A DNA stretch of 24,494 nt, taken from a virus. Lineage: Duplodnaviria > Heunggongvirae > Uroviricota > Caudoviricetes. Below the pieces are notes generated by a model. That model ran no database searches and had not been told where the DNA came from. It saw nothing but the letters and a program-made list of their open reading frames with translations. The stretch covers positions 1-24,494 of the IMG/VR virus record IMGVR_UViG_2778261179_000018. The stretch is one strand, 5' to 3'. The translations under genes were made by a program, and so were the position numbers. The stretch's first letter is position 1, and the number at the start of each line of letters is the position of its first letter. Shown here piece by piece: positions 4,401 to 21,384 of this stretch.

Positions 4401-4717
4401 TATCCACAGCTAAAGCACAGGTAAGGCACAAAACGGCGAAGCCCAGAGGTGCGCCAACACCTTCCGGGCTCCTGACCACCAGCGATAGAATCAGTATCGA
4501 GGTAGCTATGTCAAATCGTATCACACCCCTGACCGGGCGGCATCGCTCAGCCCTAATTTATTCCTCAGGCGCTTTCTGGCGCTCAACCGCCACGACAAAA
4601 AGGCCAGGCCCTGCCGCCTGTCCGTCGAGGCCGCAACCGAACGTGAAGCCCGCCGTATTCTGGCGCCGCACTTCATCCTTTCTCTGGCTGCTCGCCTGCC
4701 GCTGGTGGGGGTGCGTC

Positions 4718-4897
4718 ATGCTTAAAACCTTCCAGATTGACGGGTACGCGGTTAATAAGCGCGGTAACACCGTCGGCATTCACTACACCCTGACCAGCGA
4801 CAGCCCGGATACAGCCAAATCAACCGCGCAACTACTGGCGCAGCAGGGCGGCTATCAGCACGTTCGCATTACCCGCGTTCAGGAGGTAGCAGCATGA
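4718..4897 (+). CDS. Hypothetical small protein (start uncertain)
   Basis: C-terminal part of track ORF 3854..4897; MLKTFQIDGYAVNKRGNTVGIHY... looks protein-like, whereas the upstream part of the same frame is R/W/C/P-rich and overlaps the iterons and the minus-strand RHH gene. Stop overlaps the next start. Confidence 0.4.
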   Translation: MLKTFQIDGYAVNKRGNTVGIHYTLTSDSPDTAKSTAQLLAQQGGYQHVRITRVQEVAA

Positions 4898-5157
4898 AAA
4901 TTAACACCATCTGTCGCCATCCTGCAGAGCTTGAGGCCGAGGCAATGTTATTCCGTAAACAGCCTTACCCTGACTCTTTCTCGCTGGCAGAGCGTACCGC
5001 GGAACGCATGACCCGCGCCCGCAATGGTCTGGCTCACATTATGACAGAGCTGGCACCACGCCTCGACGATGAGCAAGCGGCCATCGTGCATTGCTGGCTG
5101 GATAAAGTCCTGGCGATTGTCGATATAACCCGAATTGATGCAGAGGCCAGTTTATGA
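4894..5157 (+). CDS. Hypothetical protein
   Basis: 87 aa; strong RBS AGGAGG upstream; translationally coupled to the next ORF (ATGA overlap). Confidence 0.6.
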   Translation: MKINTICRHPAELEAEAMLFRKQPYPDSFSLAERTAERMTRARNGLAHIMTELAPRLDDEQAAIVHCWLDKVLAIVDITRIDAEASL

Positions 5158-5375
5158 GCGGAAAAATCACGATGAAAAGAGATGTTTTCGAGGTCATCAC
5201 TGATGCTGAGCATGCCATTGGCTACTCCAACCAGGCGCTGGCGGTTCTTGACCTATGGCTGGATAGCGTGGGCATTGAAGACGATACCGAAGCGAACCGT
5301 ATCGCGGCGGTTCACAGCCTTGTGTGTGAGTCTCTGACCTGGCTTAAAAAAGCAGCCGGTATTAACGAGGAATAA
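5154..5375 (+). CDS. Hypothetical protein
   Basis: 73 aa; ATGA overlap with the upstream ORF. Confidence 0.55.
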   Translation: MSGKITMKRDVFEVITDAEHAIGYSNQALAVLDLWLDSVGIEDDTEANRIAAVHSLVCESLTWLKKAAGINEE

Positions 5376-5380
5376 AAATC

Positions 5381-5602
5381 ATGGTGAAAAATAATTCTGG
5401 CTCATCTGCCAGTGGTCTCGCTCACCCTGAAATCCTCCACGGCGATAAATGGGCAGATAAAAGCGGTGTACGGGTAATTATCGAAAGCTGCCGGTTCAAC
5501 AGAGTTAAATTTTACCGCGAAGGCTATCAGTCGCCGTGTATTTACCCCGAGCAGCGGTTTATCAAAGAGTTTTCACTAATACAGGGGGCCGTCCATGAAT
5601 AA
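5381..5602 (+). CDS. Hypothetical protein
   Basis: 73 aa; RBS GAGGAA 9 nt upstream; overlaps the next start by 8 bp. Confidence 0.45.
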   Translation: MVKNNSGSSASGLAHPEILHGDKWADKSGVRVIIESCRFNRVKFYREGYQSPCIYPEQRFIKEFSLIQGAVHE

Positions 5603-6167
5603 ACAATCTTATCCGGAAGCTGGCCCCGATGGCGTTATTACCGGCTCCGGGCTGGTGAGCTTTCTTTCGGTAACGGAAAGCCTTAGCCGCGGTGATTATG
5701 ACCGCAACCCGGAGGAAGGCATGGGTCTTGCCTGTGCCGCGCTGGATGGCGTGGCCCTGACGTGGTTCGCGGCAGCGCCAGAACAACATGCTGCTCTCTG
5801 GCGGTGGATTGTTGCGGCGGCATTTGTCGAGGAACAGGTGAAAAATAACGGAAATATCGACGTGATGTGCGAAGATGGCCGCAAAGTTAAGGCAGCTGTC
5901 TATGCCGGGAAATGCGGCGCTATAACCGTTTACCCGGTAGCGGAGCGTGTTGCTCTGGCAAGCCAGGTTGAGGGGTACGCTTTACAGAAATACGGTACTA
6001 CAACGGGTATGGATCTGGCTATCCAGCATTACCAGACGATGCTCGAATGGCGTGATGGCATTTACTGCCTGTCAGATCATGGCCGGGATATTCTTTCCGA
6101 TCTGCACGACAACCTTATCGCCACCATTCACGCCAGTGGTGTTCCTGCGATGCCAACGGAGCACTAA
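5595..6167 (+). CDS. Hypothetical protein
   Basis: 190 aa; RBS AGGGGG upstream; sits directly before the primase in the same operon. Confidence 0.6.
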   Translation: MNKQSYPEAGPDGVITGSGLVSFLSVTESLSRGDYDRNPEEGMGLACAALDGVALTWFAAAPEQHAALWRWIVAAAFVEEQVKNNGNIDVMCEDGRKVKAAVYAGKCGAITVYPVAERVALASQVEGYALQKYGTTTGMDLAIQHYQTMLEWRDGIYCLSDHGRDILSDLHDNLIATIHASGVPAMPTEH

Positions 6168-6171
6168 GCGT

Positions 6172-8856
6172 ATGAAGCGTGCAATTGAGCTTATCCACGA
6201 AGTGAAGCGCCGAACTGCCGGAAGCTGGGAAAGTGTGCTGCCGCAGTGCGGGGTGACGGTTCCGCCGAAAGGTCGTCACGGACCCTGCGCCATCTGCGGC
6301 GGTTCTGACCGCTTTCACTTTATTGACGACCACGGCGGCGGCGAGTGGCATTGTCGCCAGTGTGACGAACCGAATCATGGCGACGGTCTGGATCTCATCG
6401 CCAGAGCGCACGGTATTACCATAACCGCAGCGGCGCAGAAGGTGGCCTCTGTGTTGGGTGTAGATGCCCGGACACCGGAACCGAAGTCGGCCAGAGAGAA
6501 GCCTCAAACGGATATCGCCGGGAAAGTCGCCGGGATGGCCGCTAAAGCTGCGTCCGGACAGTCAGCCTATCTCACATCAAAGGGGCTTCAGTGCCCCTTC
6601 CCGTTGATGCCTGACGGGTCGCTGCTGATGGTGCTGAAAAACGGCGCTGGCGCTGTCACCGGCGCACAGGGGATTAAGCCAGACGGCAATAAGCGGCTGG
6701 TGGCCGGAACGGTGAAGAAAGGCTCCTTCTGTGTGGTTAATTCCGTTGAATCGCCGGAAAAGGTGGTTATCGCTGAAGGACTGGCAACCACGCTCTCAGT
6801 TAACCTGATGCGGCCCGATGCGCTGGCTGTCGTTGCCGTTGATGCCGGGAACCTGCTGCCCGTAGCGGAGGTTATGCGCCGGCGATACCCTGAGGCGCGG
6901 ATCATTATCGCTGCCGATAACGACATAAAGCCGGGAGAGCCAAACACAGGCAAAGAGGCTGCGGATAAAGCTGCTAAAGCCGTCTCTGGCTGGGTGGCTT
7001 TACCGCCAACAGTGAAAAAGGCCGACTGGAACGACTACCACCAGCAGCATGGCCTGGAAGCCGCTACAACGGCGTTTAAGAATTCGATGTATCAACCGCA
7101 GGAGCCTGAAGTGTCCGCGAGACTGCAAGTGATCAACGGAGGGAAGAAAGGCGCATCAAAACCTGAATCTCTGCGATCTCATGTCGAAAGCCGTGCTGAC
7201 GGTATTTTTTGGGTTGAGCCAAAATCAGACAAAGATACCGGGGAAATAACTACCCGTGAAAGCTGGCTGTGTTCTGCTCTGGAGGTCATAGGTACTGGCA
7301 TAGATGACAGTAAAACCCGGTATCTGATCCTGCGCTGGCGCCCATTCGGTTCGAAGGGGGATACTGTCCAGGCAATACCATTTGCTGATATCGGTGAACG
7401 CGAAGGCTGGCGAACGCTCAAGGCTGGTGGGGTGAACGTCACAACCAAAAGTGGTTTACGTGCAACGTTGGCCGACTGGCTGCAGAGCTGTGCCAATGGT
7501 GAGGTATGGCGCATTGCGCATGCTACGGGCTGGCAGTGTGGCGCCTACATCATGCCTGATGGCGAGATCATTGGTACTCCAGATCAACCGGTGCTGTTTA
7601 ACGGACGAAGTTCTGCCGCATCCGGTTATACCACCAGCGGTACTGTTGAGAGCTGGCGAGAGTGCGTTGGACGTCTGGCCTTTGGCAACTACTCGATGAT
7701 GACTGGCGTGGCCGCAGCGCTGGCAGCTCCTTTGATTGGCCTTGCCGGCGCTGATGGTTTTGGTATCCATCTCTATGAGCAGTCGAGCGCGGGTAAGACC
7801 ACCACTGCCAATGTGGCCTCCAGTCTCTATGGCAATCCGGATGTGCTACGCCTCACCTGGTACGGTACTGCGCTGGGGCTGGCGAACGAAGCCGCCGCAC
7901 ATAACGATGCGCTGATGCCGCTTGACGAAATTGGCCAGGGTGCTGACCCGGTGGAGGTCTACAAATCGGCATACGCACTGTTTAACGGCACGGGTAAGCT
8001 GCAGGGAGCGAAGGAAGGCGGAAACCGTGACCTGAAGCGCTGGCGTACTGTGGCCATCAGTACCGGTGAGATGGATCTGGAAACCTTCATCGCGAGCGCC
8101 GGTCGCAAGGCTAAAGCAGGCCAGCTGGTTCGCCTGCTGAATATCCCGATGCGCCGGGCTGTTCGTTTCCATGAACATGCCAACGGCAAACACCATGCCG
8201 ATGCCCTCAAAGATGCATACCAGCATCACCACGGAGTGGCTGGGCGTGAGTGGGTGAAGTGGCTGGCGGACCACCAGCACGAGGCTGTAAGCGCTGTCAG
8301 GGCAGCGGAAGAGCGCTGGCGTAGCCTGATCCCGTCGGATTACGGGGAGCAGGTCCATCGTGTTGGCGCCCGGTTTGCCATTCTGGAGGCCGCACTATTG
8401 TTAGGTAATGTGATCACCGGCTGGGATGAGCAGACGTGTCGGGATGCCATTCAGTACAGCTATAACGCCTGGCTGCGCGAGTTTGGTACCGGCAATAAAG
8501 AACACCAGCAAATTATCGAGCAGACAGAGGCATTCCTGAACGCCTACGGGATGAGCCGTTTTGCACCGTTCCCATATGACCCGACTAGCCTCCCTATCTC
8601 CAACATGGCGGGATACCGGCAGAAAGGCGGGCACGAGACTGACCCGATAGTGTTCTACACCTTCCCGGCAGCCTTCGAAGGGGAGATCGCCCGCGGCTTT
8701 AACTCCCGTCAGTTTGCGGAGGTATTGAAGAAAGCTGGCATGCTGACGCCACCGACTTCAGGCCGGGGATTCCAGAGAAAGTCGCCACGCATTGATGGGC
8801 GACAGATTCGGGTTTATGTCCTGCAGTATCTGCCGGACGACGACCAGCCAGAGTAA
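6172..8856 (+). CDS. Primase-helicase (zinc-binding domain + Toprim + P-loop NTPase; P4 alpha / DUF927-type)
   Basis: Start at MKRAIELIHEV (track ORF begins earlier at 5947 but overlaps the upstream gene). Zinc finger CAICGGSDRFHF...HCRQCD; Toprim acidic motifs VVIAEGLATT and IIIAADNDIKPGE; P-loop-like YEQSSAGKTTT; about 894 aa. Confidence 0.85.
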   Translation: MKRAIELIHEVKRRTAGSWESVLPQCGVTVPPKGRHGPCAICGGSDRFHFIDDHGGGEWHCRQCDEPNHGDGLDLIARAHGITITAAAQKVASVLGVDARTPEPKSAREKPQTDIAGKVAGMAAKAASGQSAYLTSKGLQCPFPLMPDGSLLMVLKNGAGAVTGAQGIKPDGNKRLVAGTVKKGSFCVVNSVESPEKVVIAEGLATTLSVNLMRPDALAVVAVDAGNLLPVAEVMRRRYPEARIIIAADNDIKPGEPNTGKEAADKAAKAVSGWVALPPTVKKADWNDYHQQHGLEAATTAFKNSMYQPQEPEVSARLQVINGGKKGASKPESLRSHVESRADGIFWVEPKSDKDTGEITTRESWLCSALEVIGTGIDDSKTRYLILRWRPFGSKGDTVQAIPFADIGEREGWRTLKAGGVNVTTKSGLRATLADWLQSCANGEVWRIAHATGWQCGAYIMPDGEIIGTPDQPVLFNGRSSAASGYTTSGTVESWRECVGRLAFGNYSMMTGVAAALAAPLIGLAGADGFGIHLYEQSSAGKTTTANVASSLYGNPDVLRLTWYGTALGLANEAAAHNDALMPLDEIGQGADPVEVYKSAYALFNGTGKLQGAKEGGNRDLKRWRTVAISTGEMDLETFIASAGRKAKAGQLVRLLNIPMRRAVRFHEHANGKHHADALKDAYQHHHGVAGREWVKWLADHQHEAVSAVRAAEERWRSLIPSDYGEQVHRVGARFAILEAALLLGNVITGWDEQTCRDAIQYSYNAWLREFGTGNKEHQQIIEQTEAFLNAYGMSRFAPFPYDPTSLPISNMAGYRQKGGHETDPIVFYTFPAAFEGEIARGFNSRQFAEVLKKAGMLTPPTSGRGFQRKSPRIDGRQIRVYVLQYLPDDDQPE

Positions 8857-8886
8857 AAGCATTCTTCCATGTGTGTAGTTTAGGTG

Positions 8887-8996
8887 TTGGTTCAGTTGGT
8901 TCAGTTGCCTCAGTAGTTATATATATCTGTTTAATAAGGGTTCTGGTTTAAAAAATGAACCAACATTGAGGCAACAAACGGGCATTTTGAACCAAC
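8887..8996. repeat. Iteron cluster flanking an AT-rich spacer; candidate replication origin
   Basis: GTTGGTTCA at 8887 and 8896, GTTGCCTCA at 8905, AT-rich 8914-8955, then inverted copies TGAACCAAC at 8956 and 8988 and TGAGGCAAC at 8967; immediately downstream of the primase-helicase gene. Confidence 0.55.
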
Positions 8997-9037
8997 ACAG
9001 AATCAGGTACAGGGCATCAGAAGAGAGGATCACAGCT

Positions 9038-9253
9038 ATGACAGCTCAAATTTCAGCATATGGCCGGCTGGTGGCCGACCCACAGACCCGAACAACCGGG
9101 AAAGGAACAACCATGGCTACGGCCCGTCTTGCGGTAGCTCTGCCCTGTAATGTCGCAGAGAACGGAGAGGCTACTTTCTGGCTGGGTGTCATTGCCTTTG
9201 GTAAGCAGGCTGATGCTCTGGCCAAACACCATAAAGCCGTATCACCAGATTAA
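9038..9253 (+). CDS. SSB-like OB-fold protein, apparently 3'-truncated
   Basis: Start at MTAQISAYGRLVADPQTR with RBS GAGAGGA. Pattern GRLVADP..R...G...A.LAVAL ... W.GVIAFGK.A resembles the N-terminal two-thirds of bacterial SSB, but the ORF stops at about 71 aa just before the AT-rich block. Confidence 0.4.
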   Translation: MTAQISAYGRLVADPQTRTTGKGTTMATARLAVALPCNVAENGEATFWLGVIAFGKQADALAKHHKAVSPD

Positions 9254-9536
9254 TTCGCTGTTGTTACGCGGGGAGAGCGTACCTGATGCCTAGACAAGCC
9301 ATCGCCGAATCACCGGGCTGGCATCAACCTACACATGCAACCTGTAAGTACGACTAAAGCCGTAAAATGGTATGGTCGACAATGCGATTTTTTTTGGCGT
9401 GATGTGCTTTACGGCTAGCAAAAAACGATTATTGGTTAACATTATTGTGTTTTATGTTTACATAAAATGGTTTATGATTTACATGTGTTCGAAAGGGATG
9501 ACTCTTTTTGAAGTCATCAATTTTTCCGGAAAAGGT

Positions 9537-10643
9537 ATGAAAGTGTTAGTTGACGATATTGTTGCTCTTATAGAAGCGTCTTTAGATGCAAACTATTCTG
9601 AAGTACGTAGTGTGAGCAATCGAATTGCCAAAGCTATAAGTACCGATAATATGGATGGTGCGAAAAAAATAAAATCTGTTTTACGACGTAAGGGGGTGCC
9701 GTTACGTAGTTCAGGTTACAGCGATAGCCTACCCGTTGATCCAAAGTCAAGAATGCCCTTGGTAGAAGAGCATCAATGGCCTGTCACGCCTCTTTTCTTA
9801 GAGGAGAGCGAACAGGATACCTTTAACACTTTTGTTGAAAGTGTAAAGCAACAAGATAAGCTGATTGCGAATGGACTAGTTGGTAAACTAGGTTTGCTGC
9901 TTTCTGGGCCGCCAGGAACAGGTAAGACATTGATTGCAGGACATATAGCGTCACAACTTAATAGACCACTTTATGTGGTGAGATTAGATTCTGTAATTTC
10001 TTCACTTCTTGGTGATACAGCAAAGAACCTAAGACAGATCTTTGATTTTGTACCGTCAAAAAATGGTGTTTTATTTCTCGACGAAGTTGATGCCGTTGCA
10101 AAAGTAAGAGATGACCGCCATGAAATAGGAGAACTGAAAAGAGTAGTAAATACATTAATTCAAGGTTTAGACTCTCTTGATGATAGTTCTATAGTTATAG
10201 CTGCGACCAATCACTCTGAATTACTTGATCCTGCTATCTGGAGACGTTTTCCTTTTAAAATACGTCTCGATTTCCCTTCCCAGGAATTACGAGAGTTCTT
10301 ATGGAGTCATTTTTTATTCGGTGATAAAGGCCCGATTAAGGAGTTAAAGGCGTTAGGTATTGTTTCAAATGGACTAAGTGGTGCTGATATTGAAACTATA
10401 GCTATTTCGGCGAGGAGACAATCAGTATTATCGAATACACCTTTGAATATTCCTTCTGTATTGTTATCAATTATGGACAGTGAATACAATAATTCAGTGA
10501 TGCCTAACACTAAGGAACCAAGTTTACATACCAAGAAAAGATTGATAAATCTTTTATACGAAGCAAAATCTTTCACACAGACAGAAATTGCCAGCCTATT
10601 AGGTTTGAGTAGGCAGACAATTTCAAGCCATTTAAAGGAGTAA
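9537..10643 (+). CDS. AAA+ ATPase (classic clade) with C-terminal HTH; IetA-like candidate
   Basis: Walker A GPPGTGKT, Walker B VLFLDEVD, sensor-1 AATN, arginine-finger region DPAIWRRF; C-terminal HTH-like TQTEIASLLGLSRQTISSHLKE. Start ambiguous (ATGs at 9483, 9498, 9537); the track start 9372 is rejected. Strongly AT-rich. Confidence 0.8.
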   Translation: MKVLVDDIVALIEASLDANYSEVRSVSNRIAKAISTDNMDGAKKIKSVLRRKGVPLRSSGYSDSLPVDPKSRMPLVEEHQWPVTPLFLEESEQDTFNTFVESVKQQDKLIANGLVGKLGLLLSGPPGTGKTLIAGHIASQLNRPLYVVRLDSVISSLLGDTAKNLRQIFDFVPSKNGVLFLDEVDAVAKVRDDRHEIGELKRVVNTLIQGLDSLDDSSIVIAATNHSELLDPAIWRRFPFKIRLDFPSQELREFLWSHFLFGDKGPIKELKALGIVSNGLSGADIETIAISARRQSVLSNTPLNIPSVLLSIMDSEYNNSVMPNTKEPSLHTKKRLINLLYEAKSFTQTEIASLLGLSRQTISSHLKE

Positions 10644-10647
10644 TGCT

Positions 10648-12876
10648 ATGGCAGATGGTAATAACCGTAAGAAAGTGTTGAACCCTCTACTTTCGTATTT
10701 GGAGGACCCTGCGCCAAAAGCGATTAATGGTGGAGGCAAGAATGCTGACGATATTCAGTGGGCTAGGTTAGATATTCAAAAAGAGACTTTAAGTAAAAGT
10801 CTTAAAAGTATCAGTGAAAACAAATCTATTATAGCTCACGCTGGTAAAATCCATCTGCTAATTAAAATGTTTGATGATTCATTAGCACCTTCATGGACCC
10901 CGACGGATTTATTTGAAACAAATCCTTTTACTAGACTAGTTTCTCCTGCATACAACGGATTTTTAGTTGAAACAAGCAAAGAAAAGATACCTGAAATTAT
11001 CAAGAAGATAAAAACTGCTAGCAATGATAGAATTAAAGTAGATGTGTCACGACTTGAAAGTATAAAGGCATTTGATAGGAGCGCAGTTTTAAGAGGGAAA
11101 AGCTTATCTGACTTTGATTTTAGTAATGATGGAAACCAGTTTAATATTTGGATTTTACCATTTCATGATCCAAATGCGCGCTTTTCGGTTGCTGAGGAGT
11201 TAGAGGATCTTGTTGATGAGGATGTTATTACGTTTGGTGAATCCATTTATGACAATGTTTTTGATGGAGAAAAAAGAACCTCTGGTACTCGTTCCTTCAA
11301 AAGAAAGTTAAAGCAATATCTATCGCATGGACATTTAACATTTACAGCAGTAGTAAAAAATAATAATGACTTCATAAAGTTAATTGGATCCGGAGCTATA
11401 TATAGAATCGAACCGGTTAAGAAGGTGACAACTAGGTCATTGCCTCCTGGTGAAGGAGAAGAGCCTTCACCAAAACTGATTAATAAAGAAACCGCTCCCG
11501 TTGTAGTTATAGTTGATGGTGGTTGTTCATCGAAGTCTTACTTGCCATTGAATGTGATTAACATTAATCCGCTTATTGATAGCTATCATGCAGATTTAAA
11601 ACATGGCAATTGCGTAACTTCATTGGTTTGCCAGGGCGGAGCTTGGAATAATAAATTACACTTACCACAATTAGAGTGTAAATTTGTTAGCGTACAAGCT
11701 ATAAGTAAGAGAGATGTAAGCCCTCAACCAACCACCGAGCAGTTCATTAATTATCTAAGAGTTGTGGCGGAGAAAACTAAAAATGTTTCTTCTGTTTGGA
11801 ATCTATCATTTAATGAGGCTTCGCCATCCGATAGTGTTGATGAAATTAGTAGGTTGGGACATGAAATAAGTCTTCTGGCTCGCGAATTTAATATATTACC
11901 CGTGATTTCAATTGGTAATGTTAACTCTGACAACCCAACTACCTTATGTCCTCCTGCTGATTGTGAAGCGGCATTGACTGTATCAGGTAGAAAAGCATCT
12001 ATTTTAGGTGAGATCTCTTCACATTGTCCAAAAAGTTTGCGTGGACCTGCTCCTGGTGGAATGAAGAAGCCTGAGCTTTCTTGGTTTTCTAAATTGAGGA
12101 TGTTAGGTGGAGATGTTAAGACAGGTACAAGCTTTAGTGCGCCCTTGATATCAAGCATTGCGGCTCACACGTTCAAAAATCTAAAAGAGCCAACTCCAGA
12201 TTTAGTTAAGGCATTACTGATAAACAAAGCTGAAGGTATTGAGCATGATCTTGGCCTAGGTTGGGGGTCTCCATGGAGGAAAGGGAGTTCTATGCCATGG
12301 ATGTGTGAAGATGGAACTGTGACATTAGCTTGGAATTCTAAATTAAAAGCTGGTAGTGCATATTATTGGAATAATATTCCTATCCCTCCTGAAATGATTG
12401 TAGATGGAAAGATTAAAGGTAGTATTATTCTTACTGCCATCTTAAAGCCAGTAGTTTCTGAATTAGCAGGGGATAACTATTTTTCAACAAGATTACAATG
12501 TGCACTACAGCATGTAAATAATGCAGGCAAGGCCAAAAATCTTCTTGGTACTATGAAAGAGTCAACCGAAAAGGAAATTGATTCCAGAAGTGAATTAGCT
12601 AAATGGAGCCCGATTAGACATCATGGTAAAAGCTTTAAAGGGGTTGCCGTTGATAATAACAAAGTAAGGCTTTATGCGCGTATTTTTACAAGAGATCTTT
12701 TCCAATTTAATTATGCGAGTCATCATGAGTTAGATGAACAAGATGTGGCATTTGTTTTGACCTTTAAAAGTCCTAGCGACGATCCATCAATTTACGACTC
12801 AATGAAGCAACAACTTGGTAACAAGGTCAAAGCTGCGATAATAGAACAGGATATTATTCTGGATAGTGATGTTTGA
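10648..12876 (+). CDS. S8 family subtilisin-like serine peptidase; IetS-like candidate
   Basis: 742 aa; RBS AAGGAG 8 nt upstream; 4-bp gap after the ATPase gene. Candidate catalytic motifs in subtilase order: Asp VVVIVDGGCS, His HGNCVTSLV, Ser GTSFSAPLISSIAAH. AT-rich like its partner. Confidence 0.8.
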   Translation: MADGNNRKKVLNPLLSYLEDPAPKAINGGGKNADDIQWARLDIQKETLSKSLKSISENKSIIAHAGKIHLLIKMFDDSLAPSWTPTDLFETNPFTRLVSPAYNGFLVETSKEKIPEIIKKIKTASNDRIKVDVSRLESIKAFDRSAVLRGKSLSDFDFSNDGNQFNIWILPFHDPNARFSVAEELEDLVDEDVITFGESIYDNVFDGEKRTSGTRSFKRKLKQYLSHGHLTFTAVVKNNNDFIKLIGSGAIYRIEPVKKVTTRSLPPGEGEEPSPKLINKETAPVVVIVDGGCSSKSYLPLNVININPLIDSYHADLKHGNCVTSLVCQGGAWNNKLHLPQLECKFVSVQAISKRDVSPQPTTEQFINYLRVVAEKTKNVSSVWNLSFNEASPSDSVDEISRLGHEISLLAREFNILPVISIGNVNSDNPTTLCPPADCEAALTVSGRKASILGEISSHCPKSLRGPAPGGMKKPELSWFSKLRMLGGDVKTGTSFSAPLISSIAAHTFKNLKEPTPDLVKALLINKAEGIEHDLGLGWGSPWRKGSSMPWMCEDGTVTLAWNSKLKAGSAYYWNNIPIPPEMIVDGKIKGSIILTAILKPVVSELAGDNYFSTRLQCALQHVNNAGKAKNLLGTMKESTEKEIDSRSELAKWSPIRHHGKSFKGVAVDNNKVRLYARIFTRDLFQFNYASHHELDEQDVAFVLTFKSPSDDPSIYDSMKQQLGNKVKAAIIEQDIILDSDV

Positions 12877-12918
12877 CTTTGCTTATACATAATAACTTTT
12901 TCAAATACAGCTTAACTT

Positions 12919-12945
12919 AAACCCGTTTCGGCGGGTTTTCTTTTT
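12919..12945 (+). terminator. Rho-independent terminator ending the ATPase/subtilase operon
   Basis: AAACCCG-tttcgg-CGGGTTT hairpin followed by TCTTTTT, about 45 bp after the subtilase stop. Confidence 0.65.
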
Positions 12946-13352
12946 GCAGCTATTTATCAATGAGTTCTGTCTGGTTGGCAAACTTGTTGTTAATGAATCT
13001 CTCTGCAGGAGTGGCATTCTTTACGAAGTGCAGGGTGCTGGGCGTTGCCCTCGTCATTCTGTTCATGCTGGTGGCCATCGCTACGTGGCAGTTTGCGCAT
13101 TACATGTAGAATCATACCGCCCATGAAAATGCCTATATCTTATTTATAGGCAGAAACGGTGTGTTCTGGCTATGTATAGGCACAGGTACCGTGTTTTTCC
13201 TATGAGCTTTACCTACCCTCCATTTTGTTCACTAATCAATCAATTCCCTTTCTGGTAACGATCGAATTTACTCTTTCATATTTTGCAATATAAGTGATGA
13301 TCATTTCACTTAATGCAATTATAATTACTGTATAAATATCAGGGGGTGGCAT

Positions 13353-13538
13353 ATGTCCAGACAAAACGTAAACGTAAAACCGGTATTACTCAGTCACGAG
13401 CAGATAAAGGCGCTGAGTGACATTCAGGAGCAGCACCGCAAAACATCCAGTATCGGCGTTGCGCCAACTATCCATGAGATTGCACGCGGTCTGATGGATA
13501 AAGCGCTGGCGTCTCTCTCCGACGGAGTGAAAGTATGA
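13353..13538 (+). CDS. Small phage protein preceding the tape measure gene
   Basis: 61 aa; RBS GGGGGTGG upstream; ATGA overlap with the downstream gene. Confidence 0.5.
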   Translation: MSRQNVNVKPVLLSHEQIKALSDIQEQHRKTSSIGVAPTIHEIARGLMDKALASLSDGVKV

Positions 13539-15535
13539 ATGCTGAAACTCTGAAGGACTTTTTAATTAGCCTGGGCTTCAAAGTAGATGACGCCGGCGCC
13601 AGAAAATTTGATGCCATCGTTACCGGCGCGACACTCAAGGCGATCGAGCTCGGCACCAAAGTAGAGCTGGCCGCTGCGTCTGTGGTGGCCTTTACCGCGA
13701 AAGTCGCCAGCGGTCTCGATAACTTGTACTGGGCCTCTCAGCGCACTGGCGCAACGGTGCAGGGCATCAAGCAGATCGGCTTTGCCGTCAGCCAGATGGG
13801 CGGCAGTGTGGATGCCGCCCGCGGCTCTCTCGAAAGCCTGGCTCAGTTCATCCGTACCAGCTCCGGAGCCGAGGGTTTCCTGAATCGCCTTGGCGTTCAG
13901 ACCCGCGATGCCAGCGGAAACATGCGGGACATGACGACGATCTTTACCGGCGTCGGCCAGCGTCTCAGCAGCATGCCGTACTATCGCGCTAATCAGTACG
14001 CACAGATGCTCGGCATGGATGAAAACACGCTGCTGGCTATGCGTCGAGGCATTGGCGAGTACATGGGCCAGTATAACGCCATGAAAAAGGCTATCGGGTT
14101 TAATCCTGATCAGGCCGCCGCGGCATCTAACCGCTTTATGACCTCGTTGCGGTCGTTCGGCGAAATGGCCGGCATGGCGCGGGACAAAATCGGCTCTAAC
14201 CTCGCTGGTGGTCTAGCCGGTGCCATTGATAACCTTCGCCGCCAGATCCTTGATAACTTCCCGAAAATAGAGCGCACCATTAACGCAGTGGTGAAGGGTA
14301 TTCTTTGGATGGGGGAGGCCGTCGGACGGGTGGTCTATCGTCTGATACAGGCCGCGGGTGATATCCGGGACTGGTGGAAAGGGCTTGATGAAGACTCCAG
14401 GAAACTCATCGGCACGCTGGGTGGAATGCTGGTGGCCTGGCGATTGCTGAATGCCGCTATGCTCGCCTCTCCGATTACCTGGGTTCTGGCGCTTGCTGGT
14501 GCGCTTCTGCTGCTCTATGACGATTACAAGACGTGGAAAGAAGGCGGTAAAAGCCTCATTGACTGGGATAAGTGGGAGCCGGCGATAAACTTTGCGCTGA
14601 CTGCCATTGAAAAACTATGGACTGGTGTGAAGCGTCTTAAAGACGAGTTGATTAAACTTTTCGGTATCGACCCTAAAACATGGTCGATTAAGTTCGAATT
14701 CGACAGTCTGAAGAAGCAGTTCAATGAGCTGAGCAAGATGCTGGATACCATAGGCAAGCTTCTCAATGCGATTGATGAAGGTCGCTGGTCAGACGCGGCA
14801 GCTTACGCCAGACAACTGCTGAATCAGGGCGGCGAGCCGACACCATCAAACGCGGTGACAGACAGCGCCAATAGCGCTGCGGACTGGATTCAGAATAAAA
14901 CCGGGTTTGACCCCCGCAGTATTGGTCAAGCCGTTACTGGCTGGTTTGGTGGTGAAGCTACTCAATACGGGCAGTCTGTTAAACGACCTCAGGCCTCTAA
15001 AGCTGGCGCTCAGCTGCTGGGTTGGATGGCTCCGATGATGGGTAAACTGGAGGCGTTGTATAACCTCCCTGCGGGCCTGCTCCGTAGTGTTGCTCTCGCT
15101 GAGTCAAACGGCAATCAGTTTGCTGTGTCTGGCGCTGGCGCACAGGGAATGTTTCAGTTTATGCCGGGTACTGCCCGCGATATGGGCCTGCGCGGCAACG
15201 ATGTGTTTAACCCGATGAAAGCGGCGGAAGCGGCGGCGCGGTATCTCTCGATGCTCCTGCAGAAGAACGGCGGCGATCTGAATAAAACTCTGGCCTCCTA
15301 TAACTGGGGCATCGGTAATGTGCAGAAGTACGGCATGGCGCTGATGCCCGGGGAGACCCGTCAATATATCCCGAAAGTGCTCAGCAATATGCCGGGCAGC
15401 GGGGCAACGCTGAACCAGGAAACCAATATCCATATTCACGGCGTCAATAATCCGCGAGAGGCGGCCAATCTGGTGGTTGAAAGGCAGAACACTGTAAACA
15501 ATCGGGCAACCCAGGATCTGGGGAGGAGTAACTGA
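13535..15535 (+). CDS. Phage tail tape-measure-like protein with C-terminal lytic transglycosylase (SLT) domain
   Basis: 666 aa; coiled-coil-like N-terminal region, hydrophobic segment LIGTLGGMLVAWRLLNAAMLASPITWVLALAGALLLL, and SLT motif block AESNGNQFAVSGAGAQGMFQFMPGTARDMG...YNWG. Confidence 0.7.
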   Translation: MNAETLKDFLISLGFKVDDAGARKFDAIVTGATLKAIELGTKVELAAASVVAFTAKVASGLDNLYWASQRTGATVQGIKQIGFAVSQMGGSVDAARGSLESLAQFIRTSSGAEGFLNRLGVQTRDASGNMRDMTTIFTGVGQRLSSMPYYRANQYAQMLGMDENTLLAMRRGIGEYMGQYNAMKKAIGFNPDQAAAASNRFMTSLRSFGEMAGMARDKIGSNLAGGLAGAIDNLRRQILDNFPKIERTINAVVKGILWMGEAVGRVVYRLIQAAGDIRDWWKGLDEDSRKLIGTLGGMLVAWRLLNAAMLASPITWVLALAGALLLLYDDYKTWKEGGKSLIDWDKWEPAINFALTAIEKLWTGVKRLKDELIKLFGIDPKTWSIKFEFDSLKKQFNELSKMLDTIGKLLNAIDEGRWSDAAAYARQLLNQGGEPTPSNAVTDSANSAADWIQNKTGFDPRSIGQAVTGWFGGEATQYGQSVKRPQASKAGAQLLGWMAPMMGKLEALYNLPAGLLRSVALAESNGNQFAVSGAGAQGMFQFMPGTARDMGLRGNDVFNPMKAAEAAARYLSMLLQKNGGDLNKTLASYNWGIGNVQKYGMALMPGETRQYIPKVLSNMPGSGATLNQETNIHIHGVNNPREAANLVVERQNTVNNRATQDLGRSN

Positions 15536-16122
15536 TGGATATTCTTTCAACGCTGTTTCAGCAAAATAGCCGCAGAATCGGGTTAATGGTGCCAAGCGTT
15601 GTTGTTTCTGAAAAACACACTGACATGCTGGAGATTACCGAGCATCCCGTTGAACGCCCCACATCTGCTGGGGCTGGTTTTATTGCTGATCATGCGTATC
15701 GCCGACCCTCTGAAGTGGTAATGGAAATTGGCTTTGCTGGTGGTGGTTCACTGCTGGATTTCTACGACACCCGAAATATTGGACTGTCGACGCCGCTCAA
15801 CAGCATGGGCCCGAAAGAGGTTTATGCGGAGCTGCTGAATATGCAGCAAGGTAAGCAGTTGCTCGACGTCACCACGGGCAAGCGGTTGTACAAAAATATG
15901 CTGATCCGCTCTCTGGAGGTTACCACTGACCGAACTACTGAAAATGTATTATCGGCCACAGTGACACTTCGCGAAGTCATTATCACTCAGACAAAAAGCA
16001 TCAAGGTGGCTGATAAAGCCGATATGAAATATGGCGTAAACACCTCAGCCGTAATTAACACCGGAACTAAAACGCCAGTACCGAAAAATGAGTCCATTCT
16101 TTCCAGCGTGTTTGGAGGTTAA
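15535..16122 (+). CDS. Phage tail/baseplate structural protein (unassigned)
   Basis: 195 aa; TGATG-coupled to the upstream gene; RBS GGAG; position within the tail operon. Confidence 0.55.
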   Translation: MDILSTLFQQNSRRIGLMVPSVVVSEKHTDMLEITEHPVERPTSAGAGFIADHAYRRPSEVVMEIGFAGGGSLLDFYDTRNIGLSTPLNSMGPKEVYAELLNMQQGKQLLDVTTGKRLYKNMLIRSLEVTTDRTTENVLSATVTLREVIITQTKSIKVADKADMKYGVNTSAVINTGTKTPVPKNESILSSVFGG

Positions 16123-16428
16123 ATGTCCGTATCGGAAATTCCGTTAGCGCCCGATAGTCAGAGTTTTAATATCACCCTAGCTGGCGTTGATTATCAAATG
16201 CGCGTGGTCTGGCGCGGGGTATGTTGGTTCCTCGACCTGATGGACAGTACCGGTACGCTGATGATTGGCGGTATTCCGCTGATCACCGGCACTAATCTGC
16301 TGGCGCAGTACCATTATCTCGGCCTCGGGTTCTCGCTTTATGTGGTCTGTGATGACCCGGCCAGCGAAAACCCAACGCAGTTTGATCTTGGCATTAAAAG
16401 CCACCTGTACGCGAAAACTGAGGATTAA
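16123..16428 (+). CDS. Phage tail/baseplate protein (small, unassigned)
   Basis: 101 aa; RBS GGAGG; immediately follows the previous stop. Confidence 0.5.
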   Translation: MSVSEIPLAPDSQSFNITLAGVDYQMRVVWRGVCWFLDLMDSTGTLMIGGIPLITGTNLLAQYHYLGLGFSLYVVCDDPASENPTQFDLGIKSHLYAKTED

Positions 16429-16430
16429 CG

Positions 16431-17513
16431 ATGCCAAGAAACTGGAACCGACATTTTGAACTACAGCTCATCGACGATAACGGCGAGGGTATCAGCCTTA
16501 GCGACTTTAAAGTTGCCTTTAGCGTAGAGCGAAACGATAACCGATGGCCAGCTATGGCGCTGGTCAAAATCTATAACCTTGCCCCCGAAACCCAGAACCG
16601 TATCATGCGCCGTGAATACAGCAAGATAACCCTGATAGCGGGTTATGACGGGCTGGATAGTGCTTCCTCTGATACCGTAAGCGCCAGCGAGGTAGGGAAG
16701 GTGCGCTACGTAACAAATGACACCATAAATAGCCCTGATGGCTCAAATTACGGTGTCATTTTCAGCGGTGATATTGCTTTCACTGTGGAAGGCAAAGACA
16801 ACATTACCGATCGGTACGTCCGTATACAGGCATTTGACGGCGACAAGGCCTTTATGGAAGCGCAGATCAGCACCTCGCTGGCCGCCGGCTATACGCTGAG
16901 CGATGAGTACAATTTGCTCATGAAGCACCTTGAACCGTTCGGTATCCGTAAGGGGGTTGAGCCGGTTTTCCCTGGTACAGTCTATCCGCGAGCTGCGTCA
17001 TACCACGGCCTTGTGAACAACTATCTTTCCCGACTGGCTGATGACCTTCGTGCGACATGGCAATTCAGCTTTGGAAAGGTTGACTTCATTCAGCAGGATG
17101 TGGCGAAACACCGTGCAATCGTCCTGAACGCTGATACCGGGCTGGTGGGCATGCCGCAGCAGACCATTGGCGGAGGGGTGAATGTTACGTGTCTTATTAA
17201 TTCCTTCATTCAGTTACACGGGCTTATTCAGTTGGATCAGGCGTCAGTGTATCGTGCACAGTTGAGCAATGAGCAGGTTTTACAGGCTGGTGGTATTGCG
17301 CCGGAACAGGAAATTAACGGCAACCTTGTCACAAGTGGTCTGGCGCAGAGAGAGAATCCGGCGAGTGTTGCGACAGACGGTGTTTATATCGTCCGCTACC
17401 TCTCATATCGAGGCGATACGCGCGGGCAGGACTGGTACATGGATTTAGCTTGCGAAGCCCGAGGAAATGCTGACGTTCCCTCATCGTCTTACTTACTCAA
17501 ACAGGATTCTTAA
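16431..17513 (+). CDS. Putative baseplate hub protein (gp27 / late-control-D-like)
   Basis: 360 aa; RBS GAGGA; lies between the tape measure and the spike gene, the usual hub position. Assignment is by context and size, not by a recognised motif. Confidence 0.5.
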   Translation: MPRNWNRHFELQLIDDNGEGISLSDFKVAFSVERNDNRWPAMALVKIYNLAPETQNRIMRREYSKITLIAGYDGLDSASSDTVSASEVGKVRYVTNDTINSPDGSNYGVIFSGDIAFTVEGKDNITDRYVRIQAFDGDKAFMEAQISTSLAAGYTLSDEYNLLMKHLEPFGIRKGVEPVFPGTVYPRAASYHGLVNNYLSRLADDLRATWQFSFGKVDFIQQDVAKHRAIVLNADTGLVGMPQQTIGGGVNVTCLINSFIQLHGLIQLDQASVYRAQLSNEQVLQAGGIAPEQEINGNLVTSGLAQRENPASVATDGVYIVRYLSYRGDTRGQDWYMDLACEARGNADVPSSSYLLKQDS

Positions 17514-17863
17514 TGAAAAAAGCAATTCTCATTATTGGCATGGTTGCTTCAATGGCGTGCAGCGCGAAAGCGCCCTTAACGCATCGGTATGATTGCGGAG
17601 CCTTTCGGTTTGAGATAATCGAAAACTCCATGTCGAAGATAAACGGCGAGTATGTAACTTCACAAAAAATAGCGTCGCTGGGGGAGCGTGGAGCCAAAAT
17701 AGATATGACCCTCACATCTGCTAAAGACGGTAATTTCTACGGCTTCGAATATGTTCATCCTGACGGCAGCAATAAGCGTTGGCTAAATGTTGAGTTAATC
17801 CGCAGTAGCATGGATCAGCCGCGGATTATTGGTACGTTTATGTGCAAACGTGTTGAGAGTTGA
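17513..17863 (+). CDS. Small secreted protein or lipoprotein within the tail module
   Basis: 116 aa; N-terminal signal-like MKKAILIIGMVASMACSAK with a Cys after the hydrophobic core; TAATG overlap with the upstream gene. Confidence 0.5.
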   Translation: MKKAILIIGMVASMACSAKAPLTHRYDCGAFRFEIIENSMSKINGEYVTSQKIASLGERGAKIDMTLTSAKDGNFYGFEYVHPDGSNKRWLNVELIRSSMDQPRIIGTFMCKRVES

Positions 17864-17872
17864 GGGGGAAGC

Positions 17873-18616
17873 ATGGCCACAGCAAGACCAATTGAAGATC
17901 GCGAGGTGTATGACTCCATCCTGAAGGGGGCGAAACAATCAATTCGTGTGTCAATGCCGGGGGTTATTAAGTCTTTTGACCCGGAAACCGTTACATGCGT
18001 TGTGGAAGTCTCGATATATATCCCTAAGCCAGAGTCAGCGGAAGGCAAATCCATTGACCGGCTGGCGCAGGACAATGTTTTCTACCCGCTTATTTTAGAT
18101 GCGCCGGTTATTTTTCCCCGCGGTGGCGGCTGTACGCTAACGTTTCCCATTAGTGCCGGCGATGAGTGCCTGGTGATATTCGCCGATCGCTGTATCGACT
18201 TCTGGTGGCAGAATGGCGGGGTGCAAAATGGCTCAAGGGGGAGAATGCACGATTACTCGGATGCGTTTGTTATCCCCGGCCCGCAGTCGCAGGCGAAGAA
18301 AATCAGCGGCATCAGCACTACGGCCGCGCAGCTGCGTACCGACGACGGCACCGCATTCATTGAGGTGTCCGCCGGCGGGGATATCACTGCCACCACCGCC
18401 GGCAACGCGACTATTAACGCCCCGGAAATCATTCTCAATGGCAACGTAACGATTAACGGCAACCTGTCGCAGGGCATGGGCGATAGCGGCGGCACAGCGA
18501 CGATGCACGGCCCTGTTACCGTAACCAACGATGTGACAGCAGGTGGTAAGAGCCTGATGACGCACACGCATGGAGGGGTTGAGACTGGCAGTGGGAATAC
18601 AGGAGAGCCGCAGTAA
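17873..18616 (+). CDS. Baseplate central spike protein (gpV / gp5 / gp138-like)
   Basis: 247 aa; RBS GGGGGAAG; Gly/Thr-rich beta-helix-like C-terminus (ITATTAGNATINAPEIILNGNVTINGN) ending in an HxH motif (MTHTHGG), as at the metal-binding tip of phage spikes. Confidence 0.6.
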   Translation: MATARPIEDREVYDSILKGAKQSIRVSMPGVIKSFDPETVTCVVEVSIYIPKPESAEGKSIDRLAQDNVFYPLILDAPVIFPRGGGCTLTFPISAGDECLVIFADRCIDFWWQNGGVQNGSRGRMHDYSDAFVIPGPQSQAKKISGISTTAAQLRTDDGTAFIEVSAGGDITATTAGNATINAPEIILNGNVTINGNLSQGMGDSGGTATMHGPVTVTNDVTAGGKSLMTHTHGGVETGSGNTGEPQ

Positions 18617-19154: not shown

Positions 19155-19613
19155 ATGGCAGTTACAACCCTAAATAGCGTGGCGGACTATCTGCTGTGCT
19201 TTGCTCAGGAGCACGGGGATGTTATGACGCCGCTGAAACTGCAAAAAATGGTGTTTTACGCTGATGCCTGGTATATGGCTCTGAACGATGGCGAAGAGTT
19301 GATTGCTGATCGGTTTGAGGCGTGGGTACACGGCCCGGTAGCGAGAGATTTGTATATCAGGTTCGCCGATTACAAATGGCAGCCGATCACCCGTGAAATA
19401 CCATGCCCGGATCTCCCTAAGGGTGTTTCTGAACATCTGGACGAAATTTATAATGTATTCGGCGGATTCTCGGCTTATGAGCTGGAGCAGATGACGCATC
19501 AGGAAAAACCCTGGCTGATAGCTCGCGGTGATATTCCATCAGATGCGCCTTGCCGGAATGACATCGACAAAGGCGTAACCGCTGAATTCTACCGCGGCAT
19601 GATGGATGCCTGA
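19155..19613 (+). CDS. Panacea-domain (DUF4065, SocA/GepA-like) protein; putative antitoxin
   Basis: 152 aa; RBS AGGAGA 8 nt upstream; hallmark LKLQKMVFYADAW ... GPV ... Y of the DUF4065 family. Confidence 0.75.
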   Translation: MAVTTLNSVADYLLCFAQEHGDVMTPLKLQKMVFYADAWYMALNDGEELIADRFEAWVHGPVARDLYIRFADYKWQPITREIPCPDLPKGVSEHLDEIYNVFGGFSAYELEQMTHQEKPWLIARGDIPSDAPCRNDIDKGVTAEFYRGMMDA

Positions 19614-19615
19614 AC

Positions 19616-20053
19616 GTGGGCAAAGGGAAAATCAAGGCAAGCAAGATACCGGCAGCGGGTAATCAAATCGTTGCCGGAACGCCCATCCCCACCACTACAA
19701 CCCTCAGTTTCTCTTTCCAGTACATTGATCCCGCACATGCTAAGTTCGGTTTTGCGGGACAGGCGACTGCTTACTTTTGCAAGGTGCTGGAGCGTCTTAA
19801 AGATATATCAACTCTGACGCCGCTTGAGTTTACGACAAACCGAAATGCGGCTCTCAAATCGCACTGTATCGAGTGGAAAACAACCTCCGAGCCTGACGGC
19901 TTTACTCACCTCAACGAGCAGTTCCAGAGCTATACGCCTTATCAGTTTGCCATATCTCGCAATGAGCACGGCCGCATACACGGCTTTTTCATTGGCAATG
20001 TGTTCTACGTCGTATGGCTTGACCCCAACCACCAGCTCTACCCCGGCGAATAG
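19616..20053 (+). CDS. Hypothetical protein, candidate toxin partner of the Panacea-domain protein
   Basis: 145 aa; GTG start 2 bp after the upstream stop (operon arrangement); no recognisable domain. Confidence 0.5.
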   Translation: MGKGKIKASKIPAAGNQIVAGTPIPTTTTLSFSFQYIDPAHAKFGFAGQATAYFCKVLERLKDISTLTPLEFTTNRNAALKSHCIEWKTTSEPDGFTHLNEQFQSYTPYQFAISRNEHGRIHGFFIGNVFYVVWLDPNHQLYPGE

Positions 20054-20158: not shown

Positions 20159-20563
20159 ATGTTTAAGGAGTGTCCTGTGCAAAGAATCGAAGTGATCACT
20201 GGCGAGCAAAAGCGCCGCCGTTATACTCCCGAAGAGAAAGCCCGTTTTGTAGCGCTCGCCATGCAGCCCGGCTACACCGTCTCACTCGTTGCCCGGCAAT
20301 ATGGCATCACTCCCAGTCTTCTTTTTAAGTGGAAACGACTCATGAACGAGGGTGGCAAGTCTGCGATCGCCGCAGGCGACGAGGTGGTCAGCGTCTCCGA
20401 GCTCAAAGCGCTGGAGAAAAAAGTCAAACAGCTTGAACAGATGCTGGGACGCAAAACGATGGAAGCCGAAATCCTTCGCGACGCGCTTGAGATAGCCCAG
20501 GCAAAAAAGTTGATATCGCGCATGCCATTGCTGCCACCGGACGATATCCCCTCATCCGAATAG
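20159..20563 (+). CDS. IS3-family transposase OrfA (HTH DNA-binding subunit)
   Basis: EQKRRRYTPEEKARFV...GYTVSLVARQYGITPSLLFKWKR and a leucine-zipper-like C-terminus; slippery AAAAAAG at 20503-20509 for a programmed -1 frameshift. Confidence 0.85.
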   Translation: MFKECPVQRIEVITGEQKRRRYTPEEKARFVALAMQPGYTVSLVARQYGITPSLLFKWKRLMNEGGKSAIAAGDEVVSVSELKALEKKVKQLEQMLGRKTMEAEILRDALEIAQAKKLISRMPLLPPDDIPSSE

Positions 20564-20568
20564 CAGAA

Positions 20569-21384
20569 GTGCTCTGTGTATCGCGTTCGAATCTGTATGA
20601 CCGGTTACTGGATAAAAGCCAGCACCGGTCAGCCCGCTACAGCAAAGACGATGACGCCCGACTGTTACCGCTTATCCGCCAGATATGCAGCGAGCGGGCA
20701 ACAAACGGCTATCGTCGCGTGACTGCGCACCTCAATCGTGCGCTGAAGGAACATAACTGGCGAGTTAACCCCAAACGTATTTATCGGATCATGCAGGCGA
20801 ATAACCTGTTACTGGCAAAATCTGGCCATAAAAAGCCAGAACGCTGCCATACCGGCAGCGTCGTGACACTTAAGTCGGATACGCGCTGGTGCTCAGATGG
20901 CTTCGAAATCCGCTGCTGGAATCGGGAAGTCGTGCGGGTGGTGTTCAGCCTTGACTGCTGTGATCGTGAAGCCATCAGTTGGTCGGCCACAGCAGGCGGT
21001 ATAAACAGCGTTATGGTGCAGGATCTGCTGACAGAGAGTGTAGAAAAGCGCTTTGGAAATACGCTTTACCTGCCACACGCCGTTGAGTGGCTGACCGATA
21101 ACGGCAGTTGCTACGTAGCGGACGCGACAAGGACGTTCGCTGCTTCACTCGGGTTCATCGTGTGTACGACGCCAGTGCGTAGCCCGGAGAGCAATGGGAT
21201 GGCTGAATCGTTCGTGAAAACGTTCAAGCGTGACTACGTGTATGTGAATGACCTGCCGGATGCGGTGACCGTAATGGAAAAACTGACAGAATGGATGGAA
21301 GACTATAATAACTGGCATCCCCATAAAGGACTGAAAATGCAGTCACCGAGAGAATACAGAAGCTCATTACTAGCTATAAATTAA
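20569..21384 (+). CDS. IS3-family transposase OrfB (DDE catalytic domain); probably expressed as an OrfAB fusion
   Basis: ORF-track coordinates; the reading frame stays open upstream to the slippery site in the -1 frame; integrase-core-like block WLTDNGSCYVA and conserved C-terminal region. Confidence 0.8.
   Translation: MLCVSRSNLYDRLLDKSQHRSARYSKDDDARLLPLIRQICSERATNGYRRVTAHLNRALKEHNWRVNPKRIYRIMQANNLLLAKSGHKKPERCHTGSVVTLKSDTRWCSDGFEIRCWNREVVRVVFSLDCCDREAISWSATAGGINSVMVQDLLTESVEKRFGNTLYLPHAVEWLTDNGSCYVADATRTFAASLGFIVCTTPVRSPESNGMAESFVKTFKRDYVYVNDLPDAVTVMEKLTEWMEDYNNWHPHKGLKMQSPREYRSSLLAIN

Follow-up and report, generated by a model that had tools for sequence, protein, structure and literature searches.

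Phage morons in the sense of Hendrix are autonomous inserts consisting of a promoter, a gene and a terminator, with a deviant GC content. Prophages and satellites such as P2 and P4 have hotspots of variable anti-phage cargo (Rousset et al. 2022, PMC9122126), and defense islands have been described in E. coli (PMC10121019). Among the systems that populate mobile elements is IetAS, a pair of protease toxin and ATPase antitoxin that provides phage defense of the abortive-infection type (PMC5006074; 10.1101/2022.08.27.505566; PMC13069673); the toxin-antitoxin system responsible for stability of the plasmid pTiC58 is IetAS, and IetAS is also an anti-phage system of Gao et al. (2020).

The window, i.e. 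the whole stretch of 24,494 nucleotides analyzed here, is an integrase-borne, prophage-like island, the host of which is probably Klebsiella pneumoniae. Its integrase gene (1-1254) is followed by AlpA, AntA and DUF4222 genes. A primase with Zn-ribbon, Toprim and DUF927 domains ends at 8856, and behind it lie an ssb stump, an AAA+ ATPase gene, an S8 protease gene and a 61-aa ORF. The tape-measure gene, whose product has an SLT domain (13535-15535), then precedes Dit-like, Pam3_gp18-like, hub and Apex-spike genes, a SocA_Panacea ORF and an IS3 element. The features between the primase and tape-measure genes are as follows.

9038-9253, plus strand: ssb' ORF of 71 aa, with ATG at 9038 and stop codon at 9251-9253.
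9237-9414, no strand assigned: orphan filler of 178 bp and 49% GC, which is neither ssb nor Iet as found in other contexts.
9358-9416, no strand assigned: 9-bp perfect inverted repeat with arms AGCCGTAAA (9358-9366) and TTTACGGCT (9408-9416) and 41 nt between them.
9415-9536, plus strand: Iet upstream region, conserved with the Cronobacter satellite and lambdoid prophage copies; presumed promoter/operator.
9537-10643, plus strand: ietA, AAA+ ATPase with a C-terminal HTH, 368 aa; PADLOC IetA PDLC02196 (2.1e-105 over 6-367 of 368 aa), Pfam AAA (2.7e-30).
10648-12876, plus strand: ietS, S8 subtilase-family protease, 742 aa; PADLOC IetS PDLC02197 (5e-70), Pfam Peptidase_S8 (7.6e-15).
12919-12945, plus strand: intrinsic terminator (CCCGTTTCGGCGGG followed by a T-run) that ends the Iet cassette; kept in all five of the contexts compared.
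12946-12988, no strand assigned: 43-bp stretch from the terminator to the restart of the sister backbone; common, in diverged form, only to L061/L062.
12989-13538, plus strand: restart of the backbone, which bounds the cargo slot on the right; includes a conserved block in which a small hydrophobic ORF (12960-13109) lies, followed by orf61.
13353-13538, plus strand: orf61, 61 aa, preceding the tape-measure/SLT gene.

As in the P2/P4 hotspots, conserved core genes of this island family flank a slot rich in defense or candidate defense genes, and the exchange of cargo appears to proceed by recombination in the flanks. In contrast to those hotspots, the slot is bordered on the left by the DUF927 primase gene and ssb, and on the right by small ORFs and the tape-measure/SLT tail-tip module. 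Homologues of orf61 were located downstream of ssb in at least 15 loci, and across 15 loci the distance from ssb to orf61 was shortest in Leclercia sp. EMC7 (264 bp) and Rahnella (377 bp) and reached approximately 4.1 kb, the two loci with the 264- and 377-bp gaps having the next backbone gene directly behind ssb. Elsewhere the slot was occupied by PDC-M18A (E. coli LR-33), by a PIN_12 protein (Tatumella terrea, in which ssb was cut at codon 56), by Hcp together with a Tlde1 effector, or by several unannotated genes. With its conserved flanks and its differing content in near-identical elements, the ssb-orf61 stretch is a variable cargo slot, or hotspot. Its left border is not respected, since parts of the ssb coding sequence have been lost repeatedly in the course of cargo turnover. 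A short literature search, which is not proof of absence, found no description of this slot in the island family.

The 71-aa ORF of the window begins as an ordinary ssb gene, with a GAGG-type ribosome-binding site and the start codon intact and with 65-91% identity to island SSBs over the N-terminal region. Codons 1-66 are derived from ssb; five codons unrelated to SSB then follow, and V-S-P-D and the stop codon TAA come from foreign DNA. The Pfam SSB profile PF00436 matched the ORF with an E value of 5e-7 and a score of 30.2 bits, above the gathering threshold of 26 bits, over profile positions 3-65 of 104, so that positions 66-104 and the whole tail are absent. The sequence-only reading had described this ORF as the first two-thirds of an SSB OB fold that then stops; the truncation stands, the front 60% or so of the fold being present. 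Of the properties of a functional homotetrameric SSB, N-terminal homology was present, residues 1-66 being aligned to the N-terminal strands of the OB fold, whereas a complete OB fold (approximately 100-110 residues) and the acidic tip (DDD-IPF-like), which serves in partner binding, were not. In terms of the island's own ssb gene, the stump represents the front 45%, and about 81 codons (67 to about 147) are missing. The same reading had proposed to look for a C-terminal remnant at 12877-13352; neither there nor elsewhere in the window was an ssb 3' remnant or an acidic tail detected in any frame by tblastn with seven intact C-terminal halves, by blastn with three 3' ends or by a motif scan, matches at E<=10 being noise only, and this fits replacement of the 3' end.

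An OB barrel cannot close with 66 residues of SSB, and such a piece makes no working SSB. Judged by its profile match, the 71-aa ORF is a truncated ssb, that is, a fragment and not a functional member of PF00436. Without the final 40% of the OB fold or an acidic tip at its C-terminus, the stump is most likely a non-functional pseudogene, and it should be annotated as such, with no biological role evident; the host SSB presumably covers any need that the island has for the protein. The fragment may nonetheless be expressed, as its good ribosome-binding site and start codon have been kept.

An alignment of SSB N-termini was used to search one genome per species, and this yielded 40 loci from about 20 genera of Enterobacterales. 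An SSB of 134-156 aa with an acidic tip of the DD(D/E)xPF type was encoded in 31 of these species-representative loci, confirming the expectation that related islands lacking the cassette would have a full-length ssb, and ssb was disrupted in about nine of the 40, or about a fifth. A full-length relative aligned to solved SSB OB domains over residues 5-113 or so. The possibility that homologues are naturally about 70 aa long, which would have spoken against a truncation, was rejected, as most loci of the genome scan encode the full-length protein. In more than 30 intact relatives from about 20 genera, DNA homology to the window ended at 9234-9239 and never extended beyond. The break against intact ssb lies at 9236/9237, within codon 67, where intact genes read ...CAT AAA G|GC GAC CTT... 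and the window reads ...CAT AAA G|CC GTA TCA CCA GAT TAA; the junction is thus AAAG|CCGTATCACC, and the k-mer that spans it is CACCATAAAGCCGTATCACCAGAT. A protein search with the stump gave a different picture, in that short clusters dominated and almost no full-length proteins were returned. Since the genome scan found mostly full-length ssb, this predominance of short proteins was read as a retrieval and clustering bias, and the proportions are not to be taken at face value. Of the 120 best clusters with homology to the stump, foreign C-terminal tails were present in 58, and these tails followed 33 different break positions between codons 39 and 126, although some of the cases, e.g. P0008, are frameshifts.

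The limits of the acquired DNA were fixed by a sister island (L065/L066), found via a 107-aa homologue, which is 98.7-98.8% identical to the window over 4405-9239 and 91-96% identical over 12989-18040. Its ssb extends past the break of the window (codons 68-93) and is cut at codon 93 by a different junction. The comparison sets the window-specific segment at about 9237-12988 (3.75 kb), and this segment consists of three parts, namely the 178-bp filler, the IetA/IetS unit and the 43 bp behind the terminator. In the sister island, the same slot (7203-9278) holds genes for a PP2C phosphatase and a 242-aa Ser/Thr kinase, the latter matching the PD-T4-6, Stk2 and mad6 defense profiles, and the two are a candidate defense pair. 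Between 9237 and 12988 of the window, no recombinase gene, target duplication or terminal repeat was found, and the segment accordingly does not qualify as a transposon or a site-specific cassette.

On the right side of the slot, the small hydrophobic ORF at 12960-13109 encodes 49 aa (...LGVALVILFMLVAIATWQFAHYM), and a hairpin lies near it on the minus strand (13130-13152). The block of about 200 bp that contains this ORF is also conserved in L047, in L062 and, without any annotation, in three E. coli chromosomes; the ORF is broken in L015 and L013, and there was no match in Rfam. The ORF could specify a small membrane peptide or be type I toxin-like.

The filler was found only in modules that combine the ssb stump with Iet. 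Searches of 5,426 E. coli genomes, plasmids, phages, viral contigs and the 40 related loci gave no match to it, nor did Rfam at E<=1; its single metagenome match was the same island at 99.99% identity. The idea that it is the frameshifted or diverged rest of ssb was rejected, as no frame resembles the C-terminal half of SSB. The GC content fell from 55% in the ssb-derived stretch to 49% (9237-9414) and then to 37% (37.3%; 9415-12945), as compared with 55-57% for ssb', the primase and the tape-measure gene. The ORF had been thought to stop just where the composition switches; in fact, ssb homology ends at 9236/9237 and GC drops at about 9415, that is, 178 bp beyond the ssb break.

Judged by its genes, the AT-rich cassette is IetAS, a known defense system, in the form of a self-contained, moron-like unit. 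It shares with the IetAS family the order of an ATPase gene followed by an adjacent S8 protease gene, the strong PADLOC matches and the location on mobile elements, and ietS starts 4 bases past the ietA stop. It differs from the family description in adjoining an ssb stump, which is not a family feature, and in the C-terminal HTH of IetA. Gene callers proposed a 423-aa ietA starting from the ATG at 9372, with 55 extra codons over the upstream region and part of the filler; since homologues elsewhere start at the equivalent of 9537 (368 aa), this call is probably an artefact. The conserved region upstream of ietA measures about 120 bp and gave no match to the sigma-70 consensus in a simple scan. 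Just before the ietA ribosome-binding site it contains a hairpin (9497-9518) with a 7-bp stem of the GATGACTC...GAGTCATC-like type and a T-run behind it; altered in places, the hairpin is retained in the copies from Cronobacter and the lambdoid prophages. This hairpin may serve as an operator for the C-terminal HTH of IetA, or as an attenuator.

The unit is mobile. IetAS homologues with 86-87% protein identity occur in a P4-like satellite of Cronobacter, next to primase, Ogr/Delta, DprA-like and OLD-like genes, and in a lambdoid prophage, between replication and NinG/Q genes; other lambdoid prophages have copies that are 72% identical. At the DNA level, homology of 84-86% to the satellite and the lambdoid prophage spans 9415/9418-12942/12943, and on the right it ends just past the terminator. 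An exact look-up of IetS returned only clonal copies of the window island, and these other contexts were reached via more distant homologues; an identical IetS protein is recorded from K. pneumoniae. Like a moron, Iet is discrete, has a conserved upstream region and its own terminator, is 37% GC against a backbone of about 55%, and has identical ends in the satellite, the lambdoid prophages and the window island. Unlike the textbook case, it showed no consensus sigma-70 match in the simple scan, and its insertion came with a deletion into a neighboring gene.

All IetAS carriers of this island type share one junction, including the two diverged islands L061 and L062. In these, ssb' from codon 9 onward, together with the filler, Iet and the right flank, forms a module with 94.5% overall identity to that of the window, whereas their primase shares just 69% identity with that of the window, and they contain an inserted DUF1233 gene. 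The identical junction in such diverged islands indicates that it arose once and that the module then moved. P0004/L063 seemed to combine the same junction with different cargo; this was rejected, as the locus is another copy of the Iet island (95% identity) that is riddled with errors and has indels. In L061 itself, ssb codons 1-13 (1481-1525) are followed by an insert of about 330 bp with the DUF1233 gene, and ssb resumes from codon 9 (1854 onward), so that codons 9-13 are duplicated, which constitutes a second rearrangement in the stump.

Divergence was distributed unevenly over the module. Between the window and L062, the Iet genes differed with pS of 0.10-0.13 and pN of about 0.01, and the filler differed from that of L061/L062 by about 12% substitutions, as counted by hand from the alignment (windowed identity was also computed), and three indels. 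The equality of filler divergence and Iet synonymous divergence suggests that their linkage goes back to the common ancestor of the carriers. In contrast, the ssb stumps were 82% identical, 19 of their 32 differences being at third codon positions, and the right flank was 71-87% identical; the flanks overall were at 70-87%, as against 97-98% for the cassette core. Furthermore, at least two intact Klebsiella alleles (L015, L013) resembled each stump more closely than the two stumps resembled each other. One event followed by drift does not directly explain this pattern, which calls for additional recombination in the flanks. The simplest reading is that the flanks, which in contrast to the core have homologues in every other island, would have been overwritten patchwise by recombination with intact alleles.

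Taken together, we consider it probable, at roughly 80%, that the ssb 3' end and an old cargo were replaced by the Iet-bearing segment in one illegitimate event, of which the stump is the scar. A single illegitimate replacement would have removed ssb codons 67 to about 147 along with the cargo behind them; at 9236/9237 the stump would thereby have been fused to 3.75 kb of foreign DNA comprising the 178 bp of orphan DNA, the IetA-IetS unit and the 43 bases; the CG at 9238-9239 possibly served as microhomology for the join. The island presumably tolerates the loss of ssb, and the module would then have spread vertically and, by homologous recombination in the conserved flanks, also between diverged islands. 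The proposal of an insertion into, or replacement of, the 3' end of ssb thus survives as replacement with deletion and not as simple insertion. The filler probably arrived together with Iet. Because the filler is absent from other Iet contexts, it could be a leftover of an earlier cargo that truncated ssb, perhaps along with 12946-12988, with the Iet moron (9415-12945) later replacing the rest. Such a two-step history would account for the same sharp ends of the Iet unit in unrelated contexts that lack the filler, for the GC content of the filler (49%) being unlike that of Iet (37%), and for the flanks in the window-L062 comparison being far more diverged than the core. The common divergence of filler and Iet nevertheless speaks for their linkage, and searches of Logan, ENA, NCBI and JGI contigs, together with the metagenome scan, turned up no copy of the junction that lacked Iet; such a copy would also have told against the cassette as the cause of the truncation. 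We therefore regard the two-step history as rather unlikely.

Very improbable, in our view, is that the 71-aa fragment was kept because it is useful, whether as a decoy or sensor partner of IetAS or as a dominant-negative SSB against helper or competitor phages. Escape loci of several defense systems do include phage replication proteins, SSBs among them (10.1101/2022.08.27.505566). The ribosome-binding site and ATG of the stump are intact, a second, diverged island also has the combination of stump, filler and Iet, there located behind the DUF1233 gene, and dN/dS between the two stumps is about 0.16. The synonymous divergence of the stumps, however, is 4-6 times that of Iet, so that the low dN/dS more likely stems from imported intact alleles. 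Retention for a purpose is disfavored by the satellite and lambdoid Iet cassettes, which have no ssb fragment at all, by the C-terminus, which is not conserved (VSPD and stop in the window, 11 more codons in L061, frameshifts in P0003/P0004), and by the L061 copy, which lacks codons 1-11; moreover, the 66 SSB residues could not close the OB barrel. The 9-bp inverted repeat, for its part, was indeed present as the sequence-only reading had it, and its right arm abuts the first base of cassette homology at 9415-9418, as might be expected of a site-specific recombination site or transposon end that had inserted the cassette. It does not, however, bracket the ssb break: both arms lie within the filler, 120-180 bp past the ssb break, with the right one at the left edge of Iet. 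At least one such repeat arose in 5.7% of shuffles of 9038-9416 (379 bp), and the window contains 16. The region 9350-9425 folded no better than shuffled sequences (z=-1.3), with the arms unpaired in the minimum-energy fold, and in L061/L062 the right arm is TTTGTGGTT, with three mismatches and no compensating change. As the repeat is also absent from other Iet contexts, and as no counterpart at the right end, target duplication or cassette recombinase was found, a role in inserting the cassette has a negligible probability. The repeat is best regarded as a chance match, and its candidacy as terminator, RNA structure or recombination site was rejected on account of its chance-level occurrence, the lack of stable pairing and the lack of conservation.

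The replacement of the ssb 3' end is ordinary turnover of defense cargo, an event of a known kind involving a known system, and leaves the current understanding unchallenged. Its value lies in that the limits of the acquired DNA are fixed at 9237-12988 and that a cargo slot has been mapped in a widespread Enterobacterales family carrying tail-tip genes; new defense genes can usefully be sought in such slots, and several of the cargos encountered here lack annotation. A further idea, to which we attach a low probability, is that, in this family, crossovers at the left of the slot preferentially take place in the 3' half of ssb. It builds on the foreign tails in 58 of the 120 clusters, with their 33 break positions, and on the disrupted ssb in about a fifth of the species-representative islands. 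If this were true, and the loss of SSB were tolerated or selected, the stumps would mark a recurrent, directional process and not random decay. Possible selective reasons would be the avoidance of SSB-sensing defenses or the shutting down of autonomous replication, and a possible mechanistic reason would be breaks at the adjacent iteron/ori region.

Between the primase gene and ssb, 8884-8998 contains an iteron-like cluster, in which GTTGGTTCA occurs as two or three direct repeats and its complement TGAACCAAC twice in inverted orientation. The cluster is strongly conserved in the E. coli LR-33 island, and it may be the replication origin of the island or a loading site for the primase.

The tape-measure/SLT, Dit-like, hub and Apex-spike genes are shared by the island family (L013-L047, L065-L067) across about 20 Enterobacterales genera, and neither capsid nor terminase genes were found within 1-24494 of the window. 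The island could be a degraded or satellite-like element whose contribution is limited to tail-tip functions. Directly after the integrase gene, an AT-rich ORF of 319 aa (1347-2306; GC about 0.35-0.37) gave no Pfam or PADLOC match and looks like a second position for foreign cargo in the island. At the other end, an IS3-family element (20159-21384) interrupts the tail-gene region, and directly upstream of it the SocA_Panacea-domain ORF (152 aa) and a 145-aa partner (19155-20053) form a possible toxin-antitoxin or defense pair.
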